Source of the DNA: a phage
Sequence record: PZ445449.1
DNA: 64,000 bases
Direction: 5' to 3' (one strand)
Part shown: piece by piece, positions 47,059 to 57,660 of the stretch
How positions within the stretch are numbered: the first letter of the stretch is position 1
Layout of the letters: every line of letters starts with the position of its first letter
The notes under the pieces: model-generated
Databases searched by the model: none
The model's input: the letters and a program-made list of their open reading frames with translations, nothing else
What the model was told of the DNA's origin: nothing
Program-made: the position numbers and the translations under genes

Positions 47059-48080
47059 TACTTGAAAATTCCTGGCATATCAAGTGTAAGGGGGATTTCT
47101 AAAATGGATTTCCTCCTTTTGATATTTCACCGGGCTGGATATTTTAAAATTCTTAGAAAATCAGAAAATGGATCGAAAACTAAAATGGATTTTTCAGAGT
47201 AGGCGCGACAAGCTGAATAACTCATCCTATCGTTTGCACCATATTCCAGGCCACCATTATAGATTTCCCACACATGCTAACCTCCCTCTACTAGAACTTC
47301 CTCCACTTGCCCTTAACCTTCTATGGTAACAATCTAACCACTATCTTGAAGTTGCGGTGCAGCTTTCCAAGTACTCGATCTACTTTTCATTTCATGGCTT
47401 GGATTTTCTGAAAATTTTTCTCGATAAATTTCTCAGTACTCGATCTGTTTTTCGTTTTCTGAATCGGATTTTCTGGAAATCGTTCCGGATCTCGACCTGA
47501 AATTTTTGGGGACGAAATCGATTTTTCGTTTTCAGAAATGGATTTTTAAAATTTCTATATGGGAATATTTTATGGGATACTGTTTTATAGGAAATTGTTA
47601 CGGAGGGTAATTAGCATGCTAATTAAATTTATTAAATGCGAGGAGTTCTCATTTAGAATTTTGAATGATAATCATTCTCGTTTGCAGAATAACGGGCAGG
47701 CCCGGTGATTGTCTCCCGGCCCCTGTTGCCCCGGCTTGTTATTATAGTAACACACAGGACAAAGAAAGCAAGAAGTTTTTGCATAAATTTTTATACGATA
47801 ATGATAATCGTTCTCATTTCATGCAGCGCCCATCCCCAGTGGTTGTCTCCCCCGTCACCGGTGCCTGCCGTCCTTTCGATAGGTATATTTTGCCACCTGG
47901 CGGGGCCGCTGTCAACACTTTTCAAAAAAAAAAAAAATTTCTAACCTGATGCGCTGACCGCTGCAACCTGGCGGGGCCAGCCTGGCAGGGACTAACTGAC
48001 CAGGTAGGAGAGAATGAAGGCTTGCAAACCTGGTGGGCCTATGCTATAGGATAGGTAACAATTGAAGAGGAGGTACAAAA
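47059..48080. repeat. about 1 kb non-coding region with short direct repeats, duplicated ~90-nt units and an A14 tract
   Basis: AAAATGGATTT x4, GTACTCGATCT x2, GGATTTTCTG x2, GATAATC(A/G)TTCTC...TTGTCTCCC units x2, CCTGGCGGGGCC x2, A14 at 47924-47937; no convincing ORF. Confidence 0.6.
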
Positions 48081-48570: not shown

Positions 48571-48602
48571 GAAATCGCAAAAGACACTAAGAGGATAAAA
48601 TC

Positions 48603-49001
48603 ATGAAAACCACTACCTTTAATTTTGATAATGCGGACTTTTCTTTTTCTGATGTCAAGAACTGCCGCCGTGATCGTGGATTTTACAAGGCTTATAATCT
48701 GGTGGGCCTAGACGATGATAATAATTTGCACGAAGTAGCGGAGATCCGGTACTATGCCGCCGCCAGCGGTAACACTAACTACTGCGTTTTTTGGATACAC
48801 GACAACAAGAATAATAAGTACGGTTATACTGGTGGCAAGGCGAGCGGTCACGGTTATGATAAGGCCAATGCAGCACTTGAAAGCGCGTTAAATGCTATGG
48901 GGATCACTGCCAACGGCTGGATCTATGAAGATGAGTTTTTGTCAGCACTTGCTGCCCACCTGGGGTATAAAAAGCACATTGTGACATGCGCCCACGAATA
49001 A
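48603..49001 (+). CDS. hypothetical protein
   Basis: 132 aa; AAGAGGA RBS. Confidence 0.5.
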   Translation: MKTTTFNFDNADFSFSDVKNCRRDRGFYKAYNLVGLDDDNNLHEVAEIRYYAAASGNTNYCVFWIHDNKNNKYGYTGGKASGHGYDKANAALESALNAMGITANGWIYEDEFLSALAAHLGYKKHIVTCAHE

Positions 49002-49012
49002 AAAAAAAATTA

Positions 49013-49069
49013 TTGACACGCTGCAAAATTAAAGTAAACTAGACACAAAAGGCGGGAATGTTTCCCGCC
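49013..49069 (+). promoter_or_regulatory. promoter plus 5'-UTR hairpin cassette
   Basis: TTGACA 49013-49018 then -10-like AAAGTAAACT; hairpin GGCGGGAA-tgt-TTCCCGCC at 49051-49069 followed by ACACAAAGGA. Confidence 0.45.
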
Positions 49070-49089
49070 AACACAAAGGAAAAAAGATC

Positions 49090-49485
49090 ATGAATAAGAA
49101 CGTACGCCGCATCATGAACGAACTGGCAAACGATGAAAAAATTATTGATATGCATTTGGTCAACATTTGCCGCCGTTGTGTAACATATAACAACCGCGCC
49201 GCAAAAGCGCGTGAGATGAACGCAAAAGGCACCTTAAAGCCCTTTCAGGTGGTTGTAAAATCTATAACCAGTGCAGCAGGCCAGGCGCATGACCACAACA
49301 ACGGGAGCACTAATATTGATCCGTCTTACGTAATGAAACGGATCCGGACTTGCAAGAATAAAGAGCAGGTGTATAACGTCATAGATTGGCTGGACTCCCT
49401 GGGCGATGTGGTTTATAATAGGTTTTCTGCAGCTATCGAGATCCAGCTTGACAGACTGGACGGGAAAGTACTGAAAACTTACTAA
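49090..49485 (+). CDS. hypothetical protein
   Basis: 131-aa ORF. Confidence 0.5.
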   Translation: MNKNVRRIMNELANDEKIIDMHLVNICRRCVTYNNRAAKAREMNAKGTLKPFQVVVKSITSAAGQAHDHNNGSTNIDPSYVMKRIRTCKNKEQVYNVIDWLDSLGDVVYNRFSAAIEIQLDRLDGKVLKTY

Positions 49486-49486
49486 G

Positions 49487-49533
49487 TTTATTTTTAGATG
49501 GCCTTGACGCCAGGGCCATCAATAAAGTAAACT
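49487..49533 (+). promoter_or_regulatory. conserved 45-bp palindromic promoter element, copy 1
   Basis: TTTATTTTTAG-ATGGCC-TTGACG-CCAGGGCCATC-AATAAAGTAAAC; -35-like hexamer lies inside palindrome ATGGCC...GGCCAT; AT-rich UP-like tract upstream. Confidence 0.5.
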
Positions 49534-49564
49534 AATCCCAGTTAAGCTAAAAGGAGGCTTGAAG

Positions 49565-49684
49565 ATGAGCACTACACGCCAGCACACAAAGGTAACTATT
49601 ATCGTTTGCATCATTGGTTATATCCTGGCGCAAATGTTGATGGGTAGCGCCAACGGTGTCGCAAAATTTTTCTTAAACTTTTAA
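49565..49684 (+). CDS. small hydrophobic membrane peptide (39 aa, below ORF-track cutoff)
   Basis: ATG with AAAGGAGG RBS just downstream of conserved promoter element; single transmembrane-like helix. Confidence 0.4.
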   Translation: MSTTRQHTKVTIIVCIIGYILAQMLMGSANGVAKFFLNF

Positions 49685-49712
49685 TTGACAAGCTAACTTA
49701 GATCGGTATACT
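49685..49712 (+). promoter_or_regulatory. sigma70-type promoter
   Basis: TTGACA - 16 nt - TATACT; followed by hairpin GGGAA-aac-TTCCC. Confidence 0.5.
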
Positions 49713-49762
49713 AAACACATCAACGGGAAAACTTCCCAGAACACACAAAAGGAGAAAACACC

Positions 49763-50104
49763 ATGACCACTATGACCGCCGCAGAAAAAGCTATTCAGAT
49801 CGCTGCCCTGAAAAAACAGATCGCAGACCTTGAGAATAAGATCGATAACTTTGAAATCGACGAGGACAAGTACGACGAAAACTATGATGAATGGTTAGAC
49901 GAGATCTACGGCGAAATTATGATCGGAAACATTTCTTTTCTTCCGTCGCGTATCCTCAAGGAGCTAGATCCTATCGCTTACCGCTGCGGATTTAGCGACT
50001 ACATCGACAGCCTGGATATTGAGGACGATGAAGAATACCAGGAATTACAGACAGAGTTGGAAGAAGCAAAAGAAGAGCTTGCGGAGCTGGAAGAAAACGA
50101 GTAA
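49763..50104 (+). CDS. highly acidic coiled-coil protein
   Basis: 113 aa; strongly D/E-rich (EIDEDKYDENYDEW..., DIEDDEEYQELQTELEEAKEELAELEENE). Confidence 0.5.
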   Translation: MTTMTAAEKAIQIAALKKQIADLENKIDNFEIDEDKYDENYDEWLDEIYGEIMIGNISFLPSRILKELDPIAYRCGFSDYIDSLDIEDDEEYQELQTELEEAKEELAELEENE

Positions 50105-50106
50105 GA

Positions 50107-50152
50107 TTATTTTTAGATGGCCTTGACTCCAGGGCCATCAATAAAGTAAACT
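50107..50152 (+). promoter_or_regulatory. conserved 45-bp palindromic promoter element, copy 2
   Basis: Near-identical to copy 1 (TTGACT instead of TTGACG). Confidence 0.5.
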
Positions 50153-50193
50153 TTATACTGTTAACACTGAACTAATGCATAGGAGTTAAAACC

Positions 50194-50439
50194 ATGGCAG
50201 CACTAATCACTAAATATTACGCCCCTACCAACACCAAAAGCGCCCGTATCATGGTAAAAGGCTTCGGACGTAAAAAGGTTTACACCTGGGATTATTCCCT
50301 AGACATGGAAGACAACTACACCAACGCGATGACCGATTTTATTAATGAACTAAATAAGCAGATCTTAACCAATTATAAGGTGACCGACATCGCCTATGTT
50401 GGGGAAGGTGGGATCTGTTTTGTCGGTATTGTCAAATAA
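50194..50439 (+). CDS. hypothetical small protein
   Basis: 81 aa; TAGGAG RBS. Confidence 0.5.
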   Translation: MAALITKYYAPTNTKSARIMVKGFGRKKVYTWDYSLDMEDNYTNAMTDFINELNKQILTNYKVTDIAYVGEGGICFVGIVK

Positions 50440-50440
50440 G

Positions 50441-50490
50441 CTGTTTTTTCGGTGGCCCTGGTGGCAGGGCCATCTATAAAGATAGTTTAT
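50441..50490 (+). promoter_or_regulatory. variant of conserved palindromic element
   Basis: T-rich tract then GGTGGCCCTG-gtgg-CAGGGCCATC then TATAAAG; shares CCAGGGCCATC-(A/T)ATAAAG core. Confidence 0.4.
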
Positions 50491-50514
50491 TAACACCATG
50501 AAAGGAGAAAGTAC

Positions 50515-50868
50515 ATGATCAGCGGGGCTAGTTTTATTATTGGCGCTATTGCTACAGCTTTAATTGTAAACAAGATCCAGGATAAAAAGGAAAGAGGAAG
50601 TACCGCCCTTGCAGAATATCCATTTTGGACATTCAACGATAACGAAGATTATATTATAAAGTATAAAAATAAAGAAGGTGACCAAGTAACACCGCGACCG
50701 ATCCCGGCTTACAAGATGCAGGAAACACTATACCGCTTGGAGGCAGGGGGCGCAAAAATTGTAGACTTTTGGGGATACGATCACACAGATCAGGAAGTTA
50801 TAAAGCGCCGTATCCGGGCTATTCAGGCCAATATTGAAGTTAGCAAGGGGGGAATATATGAAGATTAA
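50515..50868 (+). CDS. membrane-anchored protein
   Basis: 117 aa; hydrophobic N-terminus MISGASFIIGAIATALIV. Confidence 0.5.
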   Translation: MISGASFIIGAIATALIVNKIQDKKERGSTALAEYPFWTFNDNEDYIIKYKNKEGDQVTPRPIPAYKMQETLYRLEAGGAKIVDFWGYDHTDQEVIKRRIRAIQANIEVSKGGIYED

Positions 50869-51055
50869 TTTTGAGAAAATTGTAAAGCGATCTCATGATT
50901 CCGAAGAGCTGCCGGAACGCCGCCAGCGTAACAATAAACTGAATAAGCCAAAAAGATTTGGGAAGATCTGGCGGAATCATTATGATCGTAAATTGCCGGG
51001 CCTCCTTTTGGAACGTGAACGGCAGGCGGAACGATACCGCCACAAAGGCAACTAA
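50858..51055 (+). CDS. small basic protein
   Basis: ATG 50858 overlapping upstream gene; Arg/Lys-rich. Confidence 0.4.
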   Translation: MKINFEKIVKRSHDSEELPERRQRNNKLNKPKRFGKIWRNHYDRKLPGLLLERERQAERYRHKGN

Positions 51056-51063
51056 CAACCAAC

Positions 51064-51091
51064 GCCCCGCCATCGTGCGGGGCTTTTTATT
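51064..51091 (+). terminator. intrinsic terminator
   Basis: GCCCCGC-catcgt-GCGGGGC followed by TTTTTATTT. Confidence 0.65.
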
Positions 51092-51213
51092 TCTACCCTA
51101 CGAATAGCGCCCCTGGTTGGCCCCACAACGCCCTAAAAGCCCCCTACCCATGCAATCCCATTTCTTAACCTGAAAACATCGTCAAAGGCTGTTTTAAAGC
51201 GTTAAAAATATTG

Positions 51214-51241
51214 TTGACATCTAAAATATTCTAGATATACT
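51214..51241 (+). promoter_or_regulatory. sigma70-type promoter
   Basis: TTGACA - 16 nt - TATACT. Confidence 0.5.
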
Positions 51242-51276
51242 AATCGCATCAAAGCGAGAAGTAAGGAGTAAACGCC

Positions 51277-51537
51277 ATGCGTAAATTAAAAAATTTTGAT
51301 AAAGTTGATATTGTCCTGAATAATTTTTACTACTGCAATAACAAGGCCGTTTGGTGGCGTGATAGTTCCACCGATAAAGTCAAGGCGCGCTTTCTCCAGG
51401 GGCACTGGCAAGGCCGCCCAGTGATTAAAATCATGGGGCAATTGGTAGCGTTTAAAAATTGCCGCCGTGTTGATGACGTTGAAGAGATTTTAAACATTTT
51501 GCGCCACAATAATTTAAAAAATAGTGTTGACAAGTAA
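51277..51537 (+). CDS. hypothetical protein
   Basis: 86 aa; AAGGAG RBS. Confidence 0.5.
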   Translation: MRKLKNFDKVDIVLNNFYYCNNKAVWWRDSSTDKVKARFLQGHWQGRPVIKIMGQLVAFKNCRRVDDVEEILNILRHNNLKNSVDK

Positions 51538-51583
51538 ATCTCAATAAGTATAATTAAAAACACAGGCGGGAAAACTTCCCGCC
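51527..51583 (+). promoter_or_regulatory. promoter plus 5'-UTR hairpin cassette
   Basis: TTGACA - 16 nt - TATAAT (51549-51554), then hairpin GGCGGGAA-aac-TTCCCGCC at 51565-51583, then ACAGGAG RBS. Confidence 0.6.
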
Positions 51584-51611
51584 ACTAACAAAGAAAACAG
51601 GAGAAAATATC

Positions 51612-52235
51612 ATGACCACCGTTAACATTACCACAGGTTGCAATTTATCTTTCGACGTGCTGACCGACGAACAAAAAGAAAAGGCTATTGAAATGGTCCG
51701 CGAAAGAGAAGAACACAGCGGAGAGGATTTTTTCGCAGAAAGTGTAATTGAATACTATAAAGAATATGTTTTTCCAGAGTACGGCCTTGAAGATACCAAA
51801 GTACATTGGTCCGGCTTTTGGTGTCAAGGCGACGGCGCATCAATTAGTGCTGAAAATGTAAACTTAGAAAAATTCTTGCGTAAGGTTAAAGCGCTTACAA
51901 AATTCCGCTTAATTAGACACTTGTTCGGCACAATGCATGATGGCGAACTGTCAGCCAGCGTTGAACGTATCCCGTTTAGCCATTATCATCACGAAAACAC
52001 AATAGGCGGGTGCATCGATACCAATTGGCTAGACCTGACCACCAAGCAAGAGGATAAAGTTGAAGAGCTGGAAGAGCTGATCACCGAGACGGTACGGGAG
52101 TTATCCCGCAAGGTTTACGTAGACCTGGAGCAAGCCTATCTTGAACAATTCACCACCGAAAACCTGATCGGCCTTATCGAGGCCAATGATTGGCGGTTTG
52201 ATGTGGATGAATATGGCGAGATGACTTTTTCATAA
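51612..52235 (+). CDS. hypothetical protein
   Basis: 207-aa ORF. Confidence 0.5.
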   Translation: MTTVNITTGCNLSFDVLTDEQKEKAIEMVREREEHSGEDFFAESVIEYYKEYVFPEYGLEDTKVHWSGFWCQGDGASISAENVNLEKFLRKVKALTKFRLIRHLFGTMHDGELSASVERIPFSHYHHENTIGGCIDTNWLDLTTKQEDKVEELEELITETVRELSRKVYVDLEQAYLEQFTTENLIGLIEANDWRFDVDEYGEMTFS

Positions 52236-52243
52236 ATAAAGTG

Positions 52244-52299
52244 TTGCAATAACCTAAAAACCTGCTATATTAAAACTCAAGGGGCAAGACGTTTGCCCC
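52244..52299 (+). promoter_or_regulatory. promoter plus 5'-UTR hairpin cassette
   Basis: TTGCAA - 16 nt - TATATT, then hairpin GGGGCAA-gacgt-TTGCCCC, then CACACAAAACAAAGAGG. Confidence 0.55.
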
Positions 52300-52324
52300 C
52301 ACACAAAACAAAGAGGTAAACATT

Positions 52325-52705
52325 ATGAAAAACACTACTAAAGCTATTGACACCGTTATGTTTAACCTGGTTACCTTTCGCGAGGACATGAAAGATCTTC
52401 CACGTGAAACAGTGTGCGATCACATTGAAAACTATCGCAAACTAATCAAAGAGTTGCCTTTAAAACGTGACCAGTATGCGGCTAACGCTATGCTCAACGC
52501 CATGATCAAAAAGATGATTCAGTGTGATTTAACCCTGGCCTATGATTATGCAGGTGGTCGTTTTGCAGTATACAATCAGCCCGTGCCTGGTATGGGCACC
52601 ACCGAAGAATTGCACGCGCTCAATCTAAAACAAGACGTGTGGGATAGTATGCCCCGCGTGGTGGTGTGGGCAGAAAGCGGAAAGATTTACGGCGATAATT
52701 TTTAA
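52325..52705 (+). CDS. hypothetical protein
   Basis: 126-aa ORF. Confidence 0.5.
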   Translation: MKNTTKAIDTVMFNLVTFREDMKDLPRETVCDHIENYRKLIKELPLKRDQYAANAMLNAMIKKMIQCDLTLAYDYAGGRFAVYNQPVPGMGTTEELHALNLKQDVWDSMPRVVVWAESGKIYGDNF

Positions 52706-52715
52706 TCAGGTAACA

Positions 52716-52742
52716 GGCGGCATATTTGCCGCCTTATTGTTA
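52716..52742 (+). terminator. intrinsic terminator
   Basis: GGCGGCA-tat-TTGCCGCC followed by TTATTGTT. Confidence 0.5.
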
Positions 52743-52766
52743 AACAGAACTGCAAAAGAGGTACAT

Positions 52767-53141
52767 GGAATGGAATTTATTATTTTGGCCGTATTAGTTG
52801 CCTTGTTTAACGCCTGGATCGCTGGCAAGATGGGTAGATCCGCCTTTTTATGGTTTATTATATCTATTTTCCTGGGGGTGGTTGCAACTATTGTACTTGT
52901 TATCCTTGCAATTGTTGACAAAGGCGATAATAGAAAGGGTAAAGTATTTTCCGACCTGTATGACGCGCAAACATTTGTCAACGCCTATTATAGTGATCTT
53001 CCAGTCTCCCTACGCTGCAGCCTTGCACAACAGGTTTTCGATGAAGCTAAAACCAGAGATCACGCCCATGAGATTTGTTTAACTGAGGCGGATCGCCTAT
53101 TTGAGAGGAATAGAAAATATGTGGGCCAGCCGTTTAAATAA
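52767..53141 (+). CDS. membrane protein
   Basis: ATG 52767 after AAAGAGG; two hydrophobic helices. Confidence 0.5.
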   Translation, partial: GMEFIILAVLVALFNAWIAGKMGRSAFLWFIISIFLGVVATIVLVILAIVDKGDNRKGKVFSDLYDAQTFVNAYYSDLPVSLRCSLAQQVFDEAKTRDHAHEICLTEADRLFERNRKYVGQPFK

Positions 53142-53364
53142 TACCACGTTAATTAATCCCTTTGATGAAGATTTGAAGCCAGCCGCCTGGCGTGATGGAT
53201 TCAATAACGAACGCTTTATTTTCAGGCCTGATCTTAAGGAATTTTATAACAATGGATCGAACAACGACAGAGATAATTTTTCTTGTGATGTGCGTGGTGA
53301 TGGTACTCCTGGGGGCCATTGTAAACCACGTCACTACTACCAGGATGAAAGGGGGAGACGATGA
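53119..53364 (+). CDS. hypothetical small protein
   Basis: ATG 53119 after GAGGA; overlaps alternative-frame ORF 53192-53377, so frame choice is uncertain. Confidence 0.3.
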   Translation: MWASRLNNTTLINPFDEDLKPAAWRDGFNNERFIFRPDLKEFYNNGSNNDRDNFSCDVRGDGTPGGHCKPRHYYQDERGRR

Positions 53365-53480
53365 CAACCAAGGATAAGCCCCGCACCGATAAGGTGCGCC
53401 GGGTTATGGTATGGCTTGAGATCATCGCCCTTGAAATATTGTTAGGCGTAGGGATGTATTTTATCGCTGTAAGTAACTGA
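53361..53480 (+). CDS. small membrane peptide (39 aa, below ORF-track cutoff)
   Basis: ATG after GGGGGAG RBS; hydrophobic helix; followed by terminator. Confidence 0.35.
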   Translation: MTTKDKPRTDKVRRVMVWLEIIALEILLGVGMYFIAVSN

Positions 53481-53484
53481 TAAC

Positions 53485-53515
53485 GGCCCCCGATCCCTGG
53501 GGGCCTAACTTTTTC
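53485..53515 (+). terminator. intrinsic terminator
   Basis: GGCCCCC-gatccct-GGGGGCC followed by TAACTTTTTC. Confidence 0.6.
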
Positions 53516-53537
53516 AAAAAATTTTTCTTCCGGGGTG

Positions 53538-53593
53538 TTGCAATCCGGTCCGAAATATGGATAATAATAATAATCAACGGGGAGCTAATCCCC
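53538..53593 (+). promoter_or_regulatory. promoter plus 5'-UTR hairpin cassette
   Basis: TTGCAA - 17 nt - ATAATA, then hairpin GGGGA-gctaa-TCCCC, then CACAAAAACCAGAAAGGAG. Confidence 0.5.
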
Positions 53594-53624
53594 ACCAACA
53601 CAAAAACCAGAAAGGAGAAACAAA

Positions 53625-53825
53625 ATGAGCAACAATATCCGCGTTATTAACTTCAAAAAAGAAGAAAAAATTGCCGTGCTGATTGACGGTCAAGAAATCT
53701 TTAAAGGTGATTATGAAGATCATCAAACGGCGATTAGTATCACTCGCGTGATTGGTTACCATAATTTTTACCCTCAAGGCGCTGAGGCAGCAGTAAAACG
53801 AATTAAAGAGATTGTAGGCCTGTAA
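53625..53825 (+). CDS. hypothetical small protein
   Basis: 66 aa; AAGGAG RBS. Confidence 0.5.
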   Translation: MSNNIRVINFKKEEKIAVLIDGQEIFKGDYEDHQTAISITRVIGYHNFYPQGAEAAVKRIKEIVGL

Positions 53826-53827
53826 AA

Positions 53828-53873
53828 TTTATTTTTAGATGGCCTTGACTCCAGGGCCATCAATAAAGTAAAT
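53828..53873 (+). promoter_or_regulatory. conserved 45-bp palindromic promoter element, copy 3
   Basis: Identical to copy 2 over the palindrome and flanks. Confidence 0.5.
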
Positions 53874-53916
53874 TTAAACCCTGTTAAAATAATCAGTGCA
53901 AAAAGGAGTAATGATC

Positions 53917-55129: not shown

Positions 55130-55363
55130 ATGATGGAACAAATTAAACGCGCTGAGGCTATTAATGGCAATGTGATCTATTTTGTCAGCAAAAACGAAAA
55201 AGGCGTACCATATGCGGCGGTAATAGTACAACCTGACGGCGATTATTGGTTTACTGTATACGGATCTTATTCTTTTGGGCGTCCAGTGCATGATAAAATT
55301 TTGAAAGTAGCGAACCCCACCGGGAAGAATATCACGGCAGAAAAATTTTTTGAAAAGTGTTGA
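55130..55363 (+). CDS. hypothetical small protein
   Basis: 77 aa; AGAGAGG RBS. Confidence 0.5.
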   Translation: MMEQIKRAEAINGNVIYFVSKNEKGVPYAAVIVQPDGDYWFTVYGSYSFGRPVHDKILKVANPTGKNITAEKFFEKC

Positions 55364-55414
55364 CATGACCATATAAAACTGTAGTATATAAATCAAAGGG
55401 GGCAACAAGCCCCA
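55360..55414 (+). promoter_or_regulatory. promoter plus 5'-UTR hairpin cassette
   Basis: TTGACA - 16 nt - TAGTAT, hairpin GGGGC-aacaa-GCCCC, then CCACAAAGAGG. Confidence 0.5.
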
Positions 55415-55438
55415 CCAACCACAAAGAGGATAAAAATC

Positions 55439-55618: not shown

Positions 55619-55709
55619 AATAGTTTGGCAACAAACAACCATCTAACAAAGCATAATACATAAGGTGGTAGAATGATCCTCCACCCGGAACAAAGAAGAG
55701 GTAAACACC

Positions 55710-55814
55710 ATGAAACAAAAATTAATTGATGCTGTGATCCTTGTTATTGCCCTGGGTATTGTCCTGATTGCAACCATGGCTAATGTGATCTTGTCTTCCA
55801 ACGGTATCGGGTGA
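55710..55814 (+). CDS. small membrane peptide (34 aa)
   Basis: ATG after AAGAGG; single hydrophobic helix. Confidence 0.3.
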   Translation: MKQKLIDAVILVIALGIVLIATMANVILSSNGIG

Positions 55815-56756: not shown

Positions 56757-56773
56757 TCCTTATAAACTACAAA

Positions 56774-56803
56774 ACAGGGCTTGCAATGGTCCTGTTTTTT
56801 GTT
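56774..56803 (+). terminator. intrinsic terminator
   Basis: ACAGGGC-ttgcaatg-GTCCTGT followed by TTTTTGTT. Confidence 0.55.
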
Positions 56804-56884
56804 ATACTTGTTTCACGGCAGGCACCTGGCGACGGGGGGAGACAATCACCGGGTGTGCCTGCTATATAAAAACTATAAAAACCG

Positions 56885-56913
56885 TTGACATCTGCCAGGT
56901 GGTGGGGTAGCAT
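56885..56913 (+). promoter_or_regulatory. sigma70-type promoter
   Basis: TTGACA - 17 nt - TAGCAT. Confidence 0.5.
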
Positions 56914-56968
56914 TTATCTCGAAGGGGGCAAAAGCGCCCACACAACAACCGGAAGAGAGGAAAACGCC

Positions 56969-57241: not shown

Positions 57242-57301
57242 TAAGATAATGACACGGGCCAAAAGGCCCACTAATCAGAACCGCACAAAGAGGTAAACAT
57301 C

Positions 57302-57565
57302 ATGAAACGTCTTGATCAGCTCAAATTAGTTCAATATATGGCTTATCGTGTTCTTGAAGTCCAGAAAGGTAGCAAAAAAGAGGTTTGCGAGAAAGCTTAT
57401 AAGATCTTCACTCGCAAAAAAGATGACTGGATGCTACGCCAGACTAAAAAGGCTGACATCTTGGGGTACCTGGAAGAAGAGATCCGCCTTGAAGAGCAAG
57501 AAGAGATCCGCCGTAGTGAGGCAGATTATCAGGCAGCTTGGGAAAACTGGATGAGCAACAAATAA
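57302..57565 (+). CDS. hypothetical small protein
   Basis: 87 aa; preceded by hairpin GGGCC-aaaa-GGCCC and AAAGAGG RBS. Confidence 0.5.
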   Translation: MKRLDQLKLVQYMAYRVLEVQKGSKKEVCEKAYKIFTRKKDDWMLRQTKKADILGYLEEEIRLEEQEEIRRSEADYQAAWENWMSNK

Positions 57566-57631
57566 TACAACAAGTTACATGGTCAGGGGCAATAAAGCCC
57601 CTTGATCACATAAAAATTATGCTATCCCTGG

Positions 57632-57660
57632 TTGACAGGGATCGGCAGTTTTGCTATATT
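57632..57660 (+). promoter_or_regulatory. sigma70-type promoter
   Basis: TTGACA - 17 nt - TATATT. Confidence 0.55.

Follow-up and report, generated by a model that had tools for sequence, protein, structure and literature searches.

The 64-kb stretch of DNA analyzed here (the window) belongs to a Vequintavirus, an rV5-like coliphage, and carries within 4.4 kb four copies of an intergenic cassette of ~50 bases, three of them near-identical and one diverged, every one on the coding strand. All four are intergenic and start with the stop codon of the upstream gene, followed by a T-rich tract; SD and ATG of the next gene are located 33-43 nt past the end of a -10-like hexamer. The flanking proteins are all ORFans, without Pfam family and with PHROGs of unknown function only.

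Copy 1 (49483-49533, + strand; RNA fold -25 kcal/mol, z -7.1) begins with the stop codon TAA at 49483-49485. Its outer stem pairs 49485-49494 with 49524-49533 and its inner stem 49497-49506 with 49511-49520, the two being separated by an internal loop (49495-49496 and 49521-49523) and capped by the tetraloop ACGC (49507-49510); a -35-like TTGACG occupies 49504-49509, and a -10-like TAAACT occupies 49528-49533. Copy 2 (50102-50152, + strand; TAA at 50102-50104; -21.1 kcal/mol, z -5.1) has an inner stem formed by 50116-50125 and 50130-50139 with the loop ACUC, a weaker base of the outer stem, and the hexamers TTGACT (-35-like, 50123-50128) and TAAACT (-10-like, 50147-50152). In copy 4 (about 53824-53875, + strand; TAA at 53823-53825; -23.6 kcal/mol, z -6.5) the outer stem joins 53825-53835 to 53865-53875 and the inner stem 53838-53847 to 53852-53861, again with the loop ACUC, and the promoter-like boxes are TTGACT at 53845-53850 (-35) and TAAATT at 53869-53874 (-10). 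The variant, copy 3 (50437-50489, + strand; -29.7 kcal/mol, z -6.4), shares the fold of the other copies, differs in its bases and has no -35 hexamer; its outer stem (50437-50448 and 50478-50489) includes the paired stop codon TAA (50437-50439), and its inner stem (50451-50460 and 50465-50474) closes the loop GUGG.

The full structure is an interrupted hairpin of 20-22 bp, built from a GC-rich inner stem with its tetraloop, a 2x3 internal loop and an AU-rich outer stem of 10-12 bp whose 3' arm holds the -10-like hexamer. The initial annotation had described a 7-bp palindrome with the -35 hexamer in its loop, flanked by AT-rich sequence as separate blocks. This geometry has to be revised: the inner stem GAUGGCCUUG/CAGGGCCAUC comprises 10 bp, one U.G pair included, with a loop of 4 nt, such that the TTG of the -35 hexamer lies within the stem and only AC(N) in the loop, and the AT-rich flanks pair with each other upon folding to form the second stem.

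On the other points of description the initial annotation was right, namely three near-identical intergenic copies plus a variant. The core ATGGCCTTGACKCCAGGGCCATC has three exact matches on the + strand (49498, 50117 and 53839), with 0 expected (100 shuffles), and a repeat search returned one 51-nt family with four members, in which copies 2, 4 and 3 are 96%, 92% and 73% identical to copy 1, respectively. A covariance model of the family, run over all 64 kb, detected these four sites alone (75-79 bits, E about 1e-14 to 1e-15), the runner-up reaching 12.6 bits; neither the rest of the window nor PVP-SE1 has a further copy. The motif search among relatives that had been proposed at the outset gave orthologous sites, with copy number and positions fixed across about 120 genomes. 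In Rfam no family was reached, the top overlapping matches scoring 23-25 bits, under gathering thresholds of 50-80.

Selection on the sense-strand hairpin

The element is under purifying selection: among 10 genomes the mean pairwise identity was 0.960 in element columns, 0.920 in other intergenic columns and 0.892 at third codon positions (Mann-Whitney p = 6e-4, the alignment columns not being independent of each other). The selection presumed early on from the likeness of the copies is thus seen across genomes as well.

The pairing pattern identifies what is selected. A set of 28 distinct copies, drawn from 15 genomes, has 97% of its cells paired, versus 36-59% with the partners slid. Four pairs of the outer stem are altered on both sides (G:C/G.U/A:U, U:A/C:G, A:U/U:A), and five pairs of the inner stem vary, solely via G.U. 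On the sense strand, 77 G.U cells at 8 pair positions were counted versus 5 A.C cells, and the left-arm substitutions of the variant (A->G, C->T) remove the dyad symmetry of the DNA and keep the RNA pairing, with the right arm unchanged. Because the diverged copy keeps its fold with other bases and the mismatches are nearly all sense-strand G.U, selection acts on a hairpin of the mRNA-sense RNA and not on a symmetric protein-binding site in the DNA. Furthermore, since the variant retains the entire hairpin without a -35 hexamer, it is the hairpin and not the hexamer that is common to the family and selected. Along these lines, RNA folding gave -21 to -30 kcal/mol (z -5 to -7) for the sense strand versus about -17 kcal/mol (z about -2.5) for the antisense strand. 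Folded as DNA, both strands are nearly equal, each forming hairpins of -10 to -12 kcal/mol, and the minimum-energy fold of the variant no longer includes its outer stem. Across about 120 genomes, copies 1, 2 and 4 are conserved in sequence too, at loop positions 1, 2 and 4 and in the internal loop, with loop position 3 varying freely; the loop of copy 3 is freely variable (GUGG, GUUG, GCUG, GUAG, GUAA).

Promoter-like sequence

In copies 1, 2 and 4 the hairpin is overlapped by TTGAC(G/T/A)-18 bp-TAAACT/TAAATT, which agrees with the consensus at 9-10 of 12 positions, the -10-like hexamer contributing just 4 of 6; matches of this quality are expected by chance at 27.8 per 12 kb, both strands counted. 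Judged from its sequence, a sigma-70 promoter is plausible in these three copies, and it is not common to the family, as copy 3 lacks the -35 hexamer. The AAAGTAAACT -10 region recurs in identical context at a promoter-like site at 49013, there with a consensus TTGACA, and the -10 of copy 1 together with its downstream bases resembles promoters of bona fide appearance. PhagePromoter annotations of Gotham (MT682716) coincide exactly with the orthologues of copies 2 and 4. A promoter-like site of its own precedes nearly every neighbouring small gene.

The TTGAC-N19 spacing of the cassette is that of the Certrevirus early promoter consensus, AAAA(N3)TGTTGAC(N19)TATAAT (PMC7344957). The sigma-70-type early promoters of the Vequintavirinae likewise have an AT-rich upstream tract and the TTGAC-N19--10 arrangement; unlike these, the cassette has a GC-rich, self-complementary spacer and the weaker -10 match described above. 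For rV5, 33 promoters were predicted, and the cassette sites are not among the promoters or terminators given in the rV5 genome paper (PMC3606486). The searchable literature contained no transcript data for the genus.

Recombination between copies

Owing to their near-identity, the three direct repeats can undergo homologous recombination and probably gene conversion as well, and the early suggestion that they recombine was confirmed in four related genomes. Phages ime, magaca and ECP32 and the IMG/VR contig UViG_2051223002_000007 have a single hybrid copy, with the upstream flank of copy 1 and the downstream flank of copy 2, and lack the ~620 bp between the two, so that the distance between the flanking genes is 52-53 nt, versus 671-675 otherwise. 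The deleted segment corresponds to 49534-50152 on the + strand of the window (619 bp) and is made up of a repeat unit and the DNA between the two copies, with ORFs of 39 aa (49565-49684) and 113 aa (49763-50104) and a predicted strong sigma-70-type promoter with a 5' stem-loop (49685-49712). The flank haplotypes of the four genomes differ and are nearest to different full-length genomes; the deletion is recurrent, having arisen on at least two or three separate occasions. Breakpoints of mosaicism between genomes do not cluster at the elements. Rare variants common to copies 1 and 2, one case in phiWec193 and another in EdH4 and JLBYU08, suggest gene conversion between copies. In practical terms, the cassette repeats explain a recurrent natural deletion in genomes of Vequintavirus, a genus of use in phage therapy and biocontrol, and mark spots where engineered cargo could be gained or lost.

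Relation to known systems and likely function

The closest known system is the PeSL (promoter-early stem-loop) cassette of the T4-type phages RB49, phi1, PST and nt-1, whose promoters are reported as consensus-strength (Arbiol et al. 2010, PMC2839356; Comeau et al. 2014, PMC4122927). Both have the same order of elements, from the upstream stop codon over an AT-rich tract and sigma-70-type -35/-10 boxes to SD and ATG, with a stable, G-T-containing stem-loop over the -35 box or between -35 and -10; in each system the cassettes recur in clusters amid small early ORFans, and in both, copy-to-copy recombination bounds indels and deletes or swaps the intervening genes. The differences are that the present phage is a Vequintavirus and not T4-like, that the promoter match is weaker (9-10/12, 18-bp spacer), that the two-stem hairpin, at about 22 bp, is far longer and lacks a following U-run, and that the sequence family comprises only 3 + 1 copies. 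In PeSLs the stem-loop also terminates or attenuates transcription from upstream, the surroundings are plastic regions of small non-essential ORFs, and excised mini-circles can be detected in infected cells. No description of a PeSL-type cassette in rV5-like phages was found in the literature.

On balance, the cassette is probably a compact PeSL-type intercistronic regulatory unit of the early, ORFan-rich region of Vequintavirus. In a transcript arriving from the upstream gene, the ~48 nt from the stop codon on would fold into the long interrupted hairpin, which most likely attenuates read-through and/or gives the upstream message a protected 3' end. The overlapping DNA offers an AT-rich tract, the -35-like TTGAC(N) and, 18 bp on, the -10-like TAAACT, by which copies 1, 2 and 4 would probably re-initiate host sigma-70 transcription of the gene that follows; copy 3 has the hairpin alone. 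Recombination between the repeats removes, and in principle could insert, the gene cassette that they enclose. The data establish the repeats themselves, the covarying sense-strand fold, the purifying selection and the recurrent deletion from repeat to repeat; that the cassettes act as promoters, attenuate transcription or form 3' ends, and convert one another, we infer.

An intrinsic terminator consists of a GC-rich hairpin followed directly by a U-tract. The cassette has in common with Rho-independent terminators a GC-rich stem-loop on the coding strand straight after the stop codon; in contrast to them its polarity is reversed on both strands, U-rich before and A-rich after the hairpin, and the flanks pair. 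There is no U-run after the hairpin, the 3' flank being CAAUAAAGUAAAC, so that it is not a canonical intrinsic terminator, and all four sites were missed by a terminator scan and by the terminator annotations of EdH4. The candidate was rejected in this canonical form.

A purely RNA-level alternative, which we consider rather unlikely, is that the hairpin is a processing or stabilizing signal in the manner of a T7 RNase III site and that the promoter-like hexamers are incidental: a single cut in this two-turn helix, interrupted by its internal loop, would give the upstream mRNA a protective hairpin at its 3' end, as at T7 RNase III sites (PMC1540722). Like the T7 early signals of the R1.1 type, the cassette occurs in several related copies between early genes and forms an intercistronic hairpin of about two turns, in which an internal loop splits upper and lower stems. 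RNase III substrates require about two turns of dsRNA, an optional internal loop restricting cleavage to one strand (PMC1540722), and with its two coaxial stems of 10 bp and 10-12 bp and the 2x3 internal loop the cassette has this size. The selection on the AU-rich lower stem, the need for 3' ends to be processed where no U-run exists, and the fold retained by copy 3 without a -35 hexamer all speak for such a signal. By the published rules, on the other hand, good reactivity needs at least 11 bp from cleavage site to loop, and G:C or C:G beside the scissile bond or in the proximal box acts as an antideterminant (PMC1540722), whereas the upper stem measures 10 bp and G:C closes the internal loop, both unfavourable. 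Unlike R1.1, the cassette carries promoter-like hexamers as well, and the alternative leaves unexplained why TTGAC and TAAACT are kept at promoter spacing in three copies and why copy 1 resembles bona fide-looking promoters around its -10. A Keio-collection screen with the rV5-like phage LL12 returned LPS genes only, not rnc (PMC7229145); this carries little weight, as the phage may not need processing.

The initial annotation had instead favoured a switch at the DNA level, in which a dimeric protein on the palindrome, or a cruciform, occludes or exposes the -35 hexamer. Three copies, and two unrelated promoters of the window as well, do have an inverted repeat over the -35 box, and either DNA strand can form the hairpin; this gating is nonetheless highly improbable, for the symmetry is RNA-like and strand-specific (G.U versus A.C), the left-arm substitutions destroy the dyad, a 22-bp interrupted helix with covarying AU-rich flanks is superfluous for any dimeric operator, and the fold of the variant persists without a -35. 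The sequence conservation of copies 1, 2 and 4, including loop and internal loop, could mean that the three near-identical hairpins are operator RNAs of a sequence-specific phage or host RNA-binding protein, which would turn the three flanking gene pairs into a post-transcriptional regulon. We regard this as quite improbable: gene conversion between copies can account for the identity, the loop of copy 3 varies freely, and no candidate binding protein was found, the neighbouring proteins being ORFans. That dispersed, mutually recombining near-identical copies represent a selfish miniature repeat, recently spread and functionless for the phage, is hardly credible in view of the fixed orthologous positions in about 120 genomes, conservation beyond that of synonymous sites, an old diverged copy with structure-preserving covariation, and the lack of extra copies in the window or PVP-SE1.

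Going beyond PeSLs, the cassette might be a dual-use switch that couples a factor-read RNA hairpin with the promoter of the next gene within 50 bp, a proposal we hold to be distinctly unlikely. RNase III or a phage early protein might then read the hairpin and so decide what becomes of three early messages, processing might be coupled with read-through transcription and re-initiation, and the identical copies might release gene mini-circles of about 0.6 kb, moving ORFan cassettes between Vequintaviruses.

Assignment to the PeSL type extends this idea past T4-like phages. PeSLs combine terminator and promoter in a small cassette and serve both as organizers of early transcription and as recombination joints shuffling accessory genes, and a PeSL-like cassette here suggests a convergent or general design among large lytic coliphages. 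As the hairpin has no U-run, it is overlooked by annotation pipelines.

A hairpin overlapping the -35 box is a recurrent design in the window, seen also in two + strand composites whose hairpins are unrelated to the cassette. At 56771-56808, directly past the stop codon of the upstream gene, an 11-bp hairpin holds a -35-like TTGCAA in its loop and is followed by a U-run and then a -10 TATACT. At 57624-57660, a 7-bp hairpin (AUCCCUG/CAGGGAU) overlaps a consensus -35 TTGACA, with a 17-bp spacer and the -10 TATATT.

A repeated intergenic hairpin under selection

The intergenic element is a real, selected and repeated cassette. Its 23-nt core occurs exactly three times in the window against none expected by chance, which bears out the repeats described in the initial annotation, and a repeat search returned a four-member, 51-nt family comprising copy 1 (49483-49533), copy 2 (50102-50152), copy 4 (53824-53874) and the variant copy 3 (50437-50487). 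All four copies lie on the coding strand; each starts at the upstream gene's stop codon and leaves 33-43 nt between its end and the next ATG. A covariance model built for the element matched only these four sites in the 64 kb; when used to look for diverged copies, it returned none in the rest of the window and none in 100 kb of Salmonella phage PVP-SE1. An Rfam search at a permissive E-value gave nothing meaningful matching the element, and scanning IMG/VR for a 17-mer yielded only three rV5-like stretches (on two contigs) plus chance matches. Because the element is absent from PVP-SE1 and its BLAST matches are confined to Vequintavirus, it is considered genus-restricted. Within the genus it is kept: the element was found in the Vequintavirus relatives as well as at the four window sites. 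Tracing it by synteny into other genera via the flanking proteins failed to extend it; these early proteins are either genus-restricted or scattered among unrelated phages. A small ORF spanning the element was also considered and rejected, the only overlapping frames being short antisense ORFs annotated in no relative.

The initial annotation had divided the repeat into separate blocks, with a -35 hexamer in the loop of a palindrome; these become one structure when the sense strand is folded as RNA. In the outer stem (10-12 bp) the A-rich 3' flank AAAGUAAACU is the partner of the T-rich 5' flank, which starts within or beside the stop codon. A 2x3 internal loop separates this stem from an inner stem of 10 bp, in which GAUGGCCUUG is paired with CAGGGCCAUC, including one U.G pair, and which is capped by the tetraloop ACGC, ACUC or GUGG. 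The RNA folding energy of the sense strand is -21 to -30 kcal/mol (z -5 to -7), in contrast to only about -17 kcal/mol (z about -2.5) for the antisense strand. Folding as DNA almost removes the difference between the strands (-12.4 and -10.5 kcal/mol), and the minimum-energy fold of the variant copy then lacks its outer stem.

For comparison among relatives, the region was gathered from 13 GenBank genomes and 2 IMG/VR contigs, and 28 distinct sense-strand copies were aligned. Standard pairs occupy 97% of the cells across the 28 copies, against 36-59% once the 3' partners are shifted by 1-3 columns. Changes on both sides were found at four outer-stem pairs, one of which appears as G:C, G.U and A:U across copies 1 and 4, while another shifts from U:A to C:G among the copy 3 orthologues; five inner-stem pairs vary through G.U only. 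Overall, G.U fills 77 cells at 8 positions, whereas A.C, the opposite-strand counterpart of G.U, fills 5 cells at 3 positions. The loop of copy 3 is free to vary (GUGG, GUUG, GCUG, GUAG, GUAA), with the stem retained. Selection, as first suggested from the sequence, is evident in 10 full-length genomes, where conservation is higher in the element columns (0.960) than in other intergenic DNA (0.920) and at third codon positions (0.892). From the pairing, the covariation, the G.U bias and the conservation we conclude that an RNA hairpin of the sense (mRNA) strand is under purifying selection. Gating by a dimeric DNA-binding protein or by cruciform formation, as earlier envisaged, finds no support, since neither a cruciform nor a symmetric operator on DNA would produce this substitution pattern.

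Promoter signals and related systems

Copies 1, 2 and 4 carry TTGAC(G/T/A) and, beyond an 18-bp spacer, TAAACT or TAAATT, agreeing with 9-10 of the 12 consensus positions, and the -35 is preceded by an AT-rich tract. The promoter-like site at 49013, with a perfect TTGACA, has exactly the -10 context of the element (AAAGTAAACT), the sequence just past the copy 1 -10 (AATCCCA) is similar to that at the strong site at 51214 (AATCGCA), and the TTGAC-N19 spacing of the Certrevirus early-promoter consensus equals that of the element (PMC7344957). In the GenBank record of phage Gotham (MT682716), PhagePromoter features match copies 2 and 4 to the base. These matches are offset by the frequency of chance matches at the 9-10/12 level (27.8 expected per 12 kb), by the absence of the -35 from copy 3, by the rV5 genome paper (PMC3606486), which does not list the element sites, and by the searchable literature, in which no transcript mapping for Vequintavirus was found. 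A sigma-70 promoter in copies 1, 2 and 4 is thus plausible but unproven. In the same Gotham record, PhagePromoter marks a T4-late-like octamer inside copy 3, TATAAAGA, as a promoter (L031 5860-5867, corresponding to window 50469-50476). Reading the element as a T4 late promoter (TATAAATA-like AATAAAGT / TATAAAGA) was set aside: no homologue of T4 gp45, gp33 or gp55 is reported in the rV5 genome paper, whose proposed late motif is another one.

The closest known parallel is the promoter-early stem-loop (PeSL) cassette of the T4-type phages RB49, phi1, PST and nt-1, in which an AT-rich region holds the upstream gene's stop codon (PMC2839356, section 14; PMC4122927). A G-T-containing stem-loop is located between, or overlaps, sigma-70-like -35 and -10 boxes, with a Shine-Dalgarno sequence and ATG next; the stem-loop attenuates transcription from upstream, the promoter restarts it, and PeSL copies recombine to give indels and mini-circles (PMC2839356, PMC4122927). 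The rV5-like element shares the layout, with promoter-like boxes in copies 1, 2 and 4, and the indels between copies, but it resides in another host lineage, its promoter match is weaker, and its hairpin is two-stemmed, much longer and lacks a U-run. Our searches turned up no PeSL-type cassette described for rV5-like phages. With no U-tract after the hairpin, a canonical intrinsic terminator is excluded. The main rival is a T7-style RNase III site, as a two-turn helix with an internal loop suits the general substrate description; the upper stem of 10 bp, however, falls short of the 11-bp minimum for good reactivity, and the G:C pair at the internal loop is a catalytic antideterminant when beside the scissile bond (PMC1540722). 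A Keio screen with the rV5-like phage LL12 recovered LPS genes only (PMC7229145), which is weak evidence on RNase III in either direction. The element is best described as a PeSL-like cassette that combines an RNA hairpin of the sense strand with a probable sigma-70 promoter.

Recombination between copies

That the repeats could serve in recombination, as the initial annotation had it, was confirmed by phages ime and ECP32 and the IMG/VR contig UViG_2051223002_000007, each with a single hybrid copy that joins the copy 1 upstream flank to the copy 2 downstream flank. The flanking genes are 52-53 nt apart in these three, compared with 671-675 nt elsewhere, and the lost 619 bp contains a 39-aa ORF, a predicted strong promoter and a 113-aa ORF; a junction search added phage magaca with the same deletion. 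The ime flanks match the full-length phages EdH4 and JLBYU08 at 100% identity, the nearest full-length relative of the ECP32 flanks is Phage 203, and the upstream gene shows a mutual identity of only 83-93% among the three deletion genomes examined. As the flanks differ and lie nearest to different full-length phages, the deletion arose or was transferred more than once. In phiWec193, copies 1 and 2 share a rare T-to-C change, and in EdH4 and JLBYU08 they share a rare loop A; such shared variants suggest gene conversion between these copies, which would also account for the near-identity of the three copies.

General mosaic breakpoints between genomes are not concentrated at the elements. Per-segment identities alone had looked suggestive of such a role, but exact mismatch positions place the break between the window and EdH4 near position 53610, which belongs to the adjacent promoter cassette and not to copy 4. 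Directly 3' of copy 4, the 5' UTR at 53892-53915 exists as two sharply different haplotypes, AATCAGTGCAAAAAGGAGTAATGATC and CCACGCAGTTAACAAGGAGTGATAGAC, which split otherwise close genomes and leave the copy 4 element unchanged.

The early region and its other cassettes

Over the 5.5 kb around the element, more than 110 genomes of Vequintavirus (rV5-like) coliphages show 94-96% identity, the best match being MaxTheCat (96.4%). The elements lie within a run of small genes, every one of them on the + strand, with a sigma-70-type promoter-like site 5' of each gene or gene pair and terminator-like hairpins 3' of several. No Pfam family was found for the element-flanking proteins, and PHROGs gave unknown-function families only; this is a typical early ORFan region. 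The 81-aa protein encoded between copies 2 and 3 (50194-50439) has homologues of 35-44% identity in the Seuratvirus-like CAjan, Cronobacter CSP1, Pseudomonas KIL1-like phages and Klebsiella podophages, and their occurrence in such unrelated groups points to horizontal movement of this ORFan. Seventeen records (MG0656xx) carry the name 'Campylobacter phage' and the host Campylobacter jejuni, and over this region they share 94-100% identity with Vequintavirus genomes of E. coli; their host label looks doubtful, with contaminating coliphage or mislabelling as possible explanations.

Two unrelated hairpins elsewhere lie over a -35. At 56771-56798 an 11-bp stem with TTGCAA in the loop is followed by a U-run and TATACT, and at 57624-57642 a 7-bp stem overlaps TTGACA; the corresponding promoter-like sites (56771-56808 and 57624-57660) are not homologous to each other. 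The former, judged by its U-run, looks like a true intrinsic terminator fused to a promoter. Since two unrelated sites share the design, merging stem-loop and promoter appears to be a habit of the early region rather than a quirk of one family. A second class of cassette combines a predicted strong sigma-70-type promoter with a GC-rich 5'-UTR stem-loop (e.g. GGCGGGAAAACTTCCCGCC) within about 10-20 nt, followed by an A/C-rich leader and a Shine-Dalgarno sequence. It is found at 49013-49070, 49685-49740, 51527-51585, 52244-52300, 53538-53600, 55360-55415 and 56885-56941; several of these have common sequence (repeat families D11 and D13), and analogous promoter/stem-loop/Shine-Dalgarno repeats are present in the PVP-SE1 early region. 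A 23-nt translation-initiation block, AMAAAGAGGTAAACAYYATGAAA, recurs 5' of four different small genes (repeat family D3; 48586-48608, 52308-52330, 55693-55715 and 57285-57307). Finally, three tandem units of about 65-74 bp (AAATTTCTCAGTACTCGATCTGTTTTTCGTTTTC...) occupy 47361-47546, where no convincing ORFs are found; the rV5 genome paper draws a 'non-coding' box free of ORFs, and PVP-SE1 (L030:30986-31194) has three 67-75-bp tandem units with the reverse-complement motif GATCGAGTAC. The repeats at 47361-47546 could represent an iteron- or origin-like region conserved across genera.
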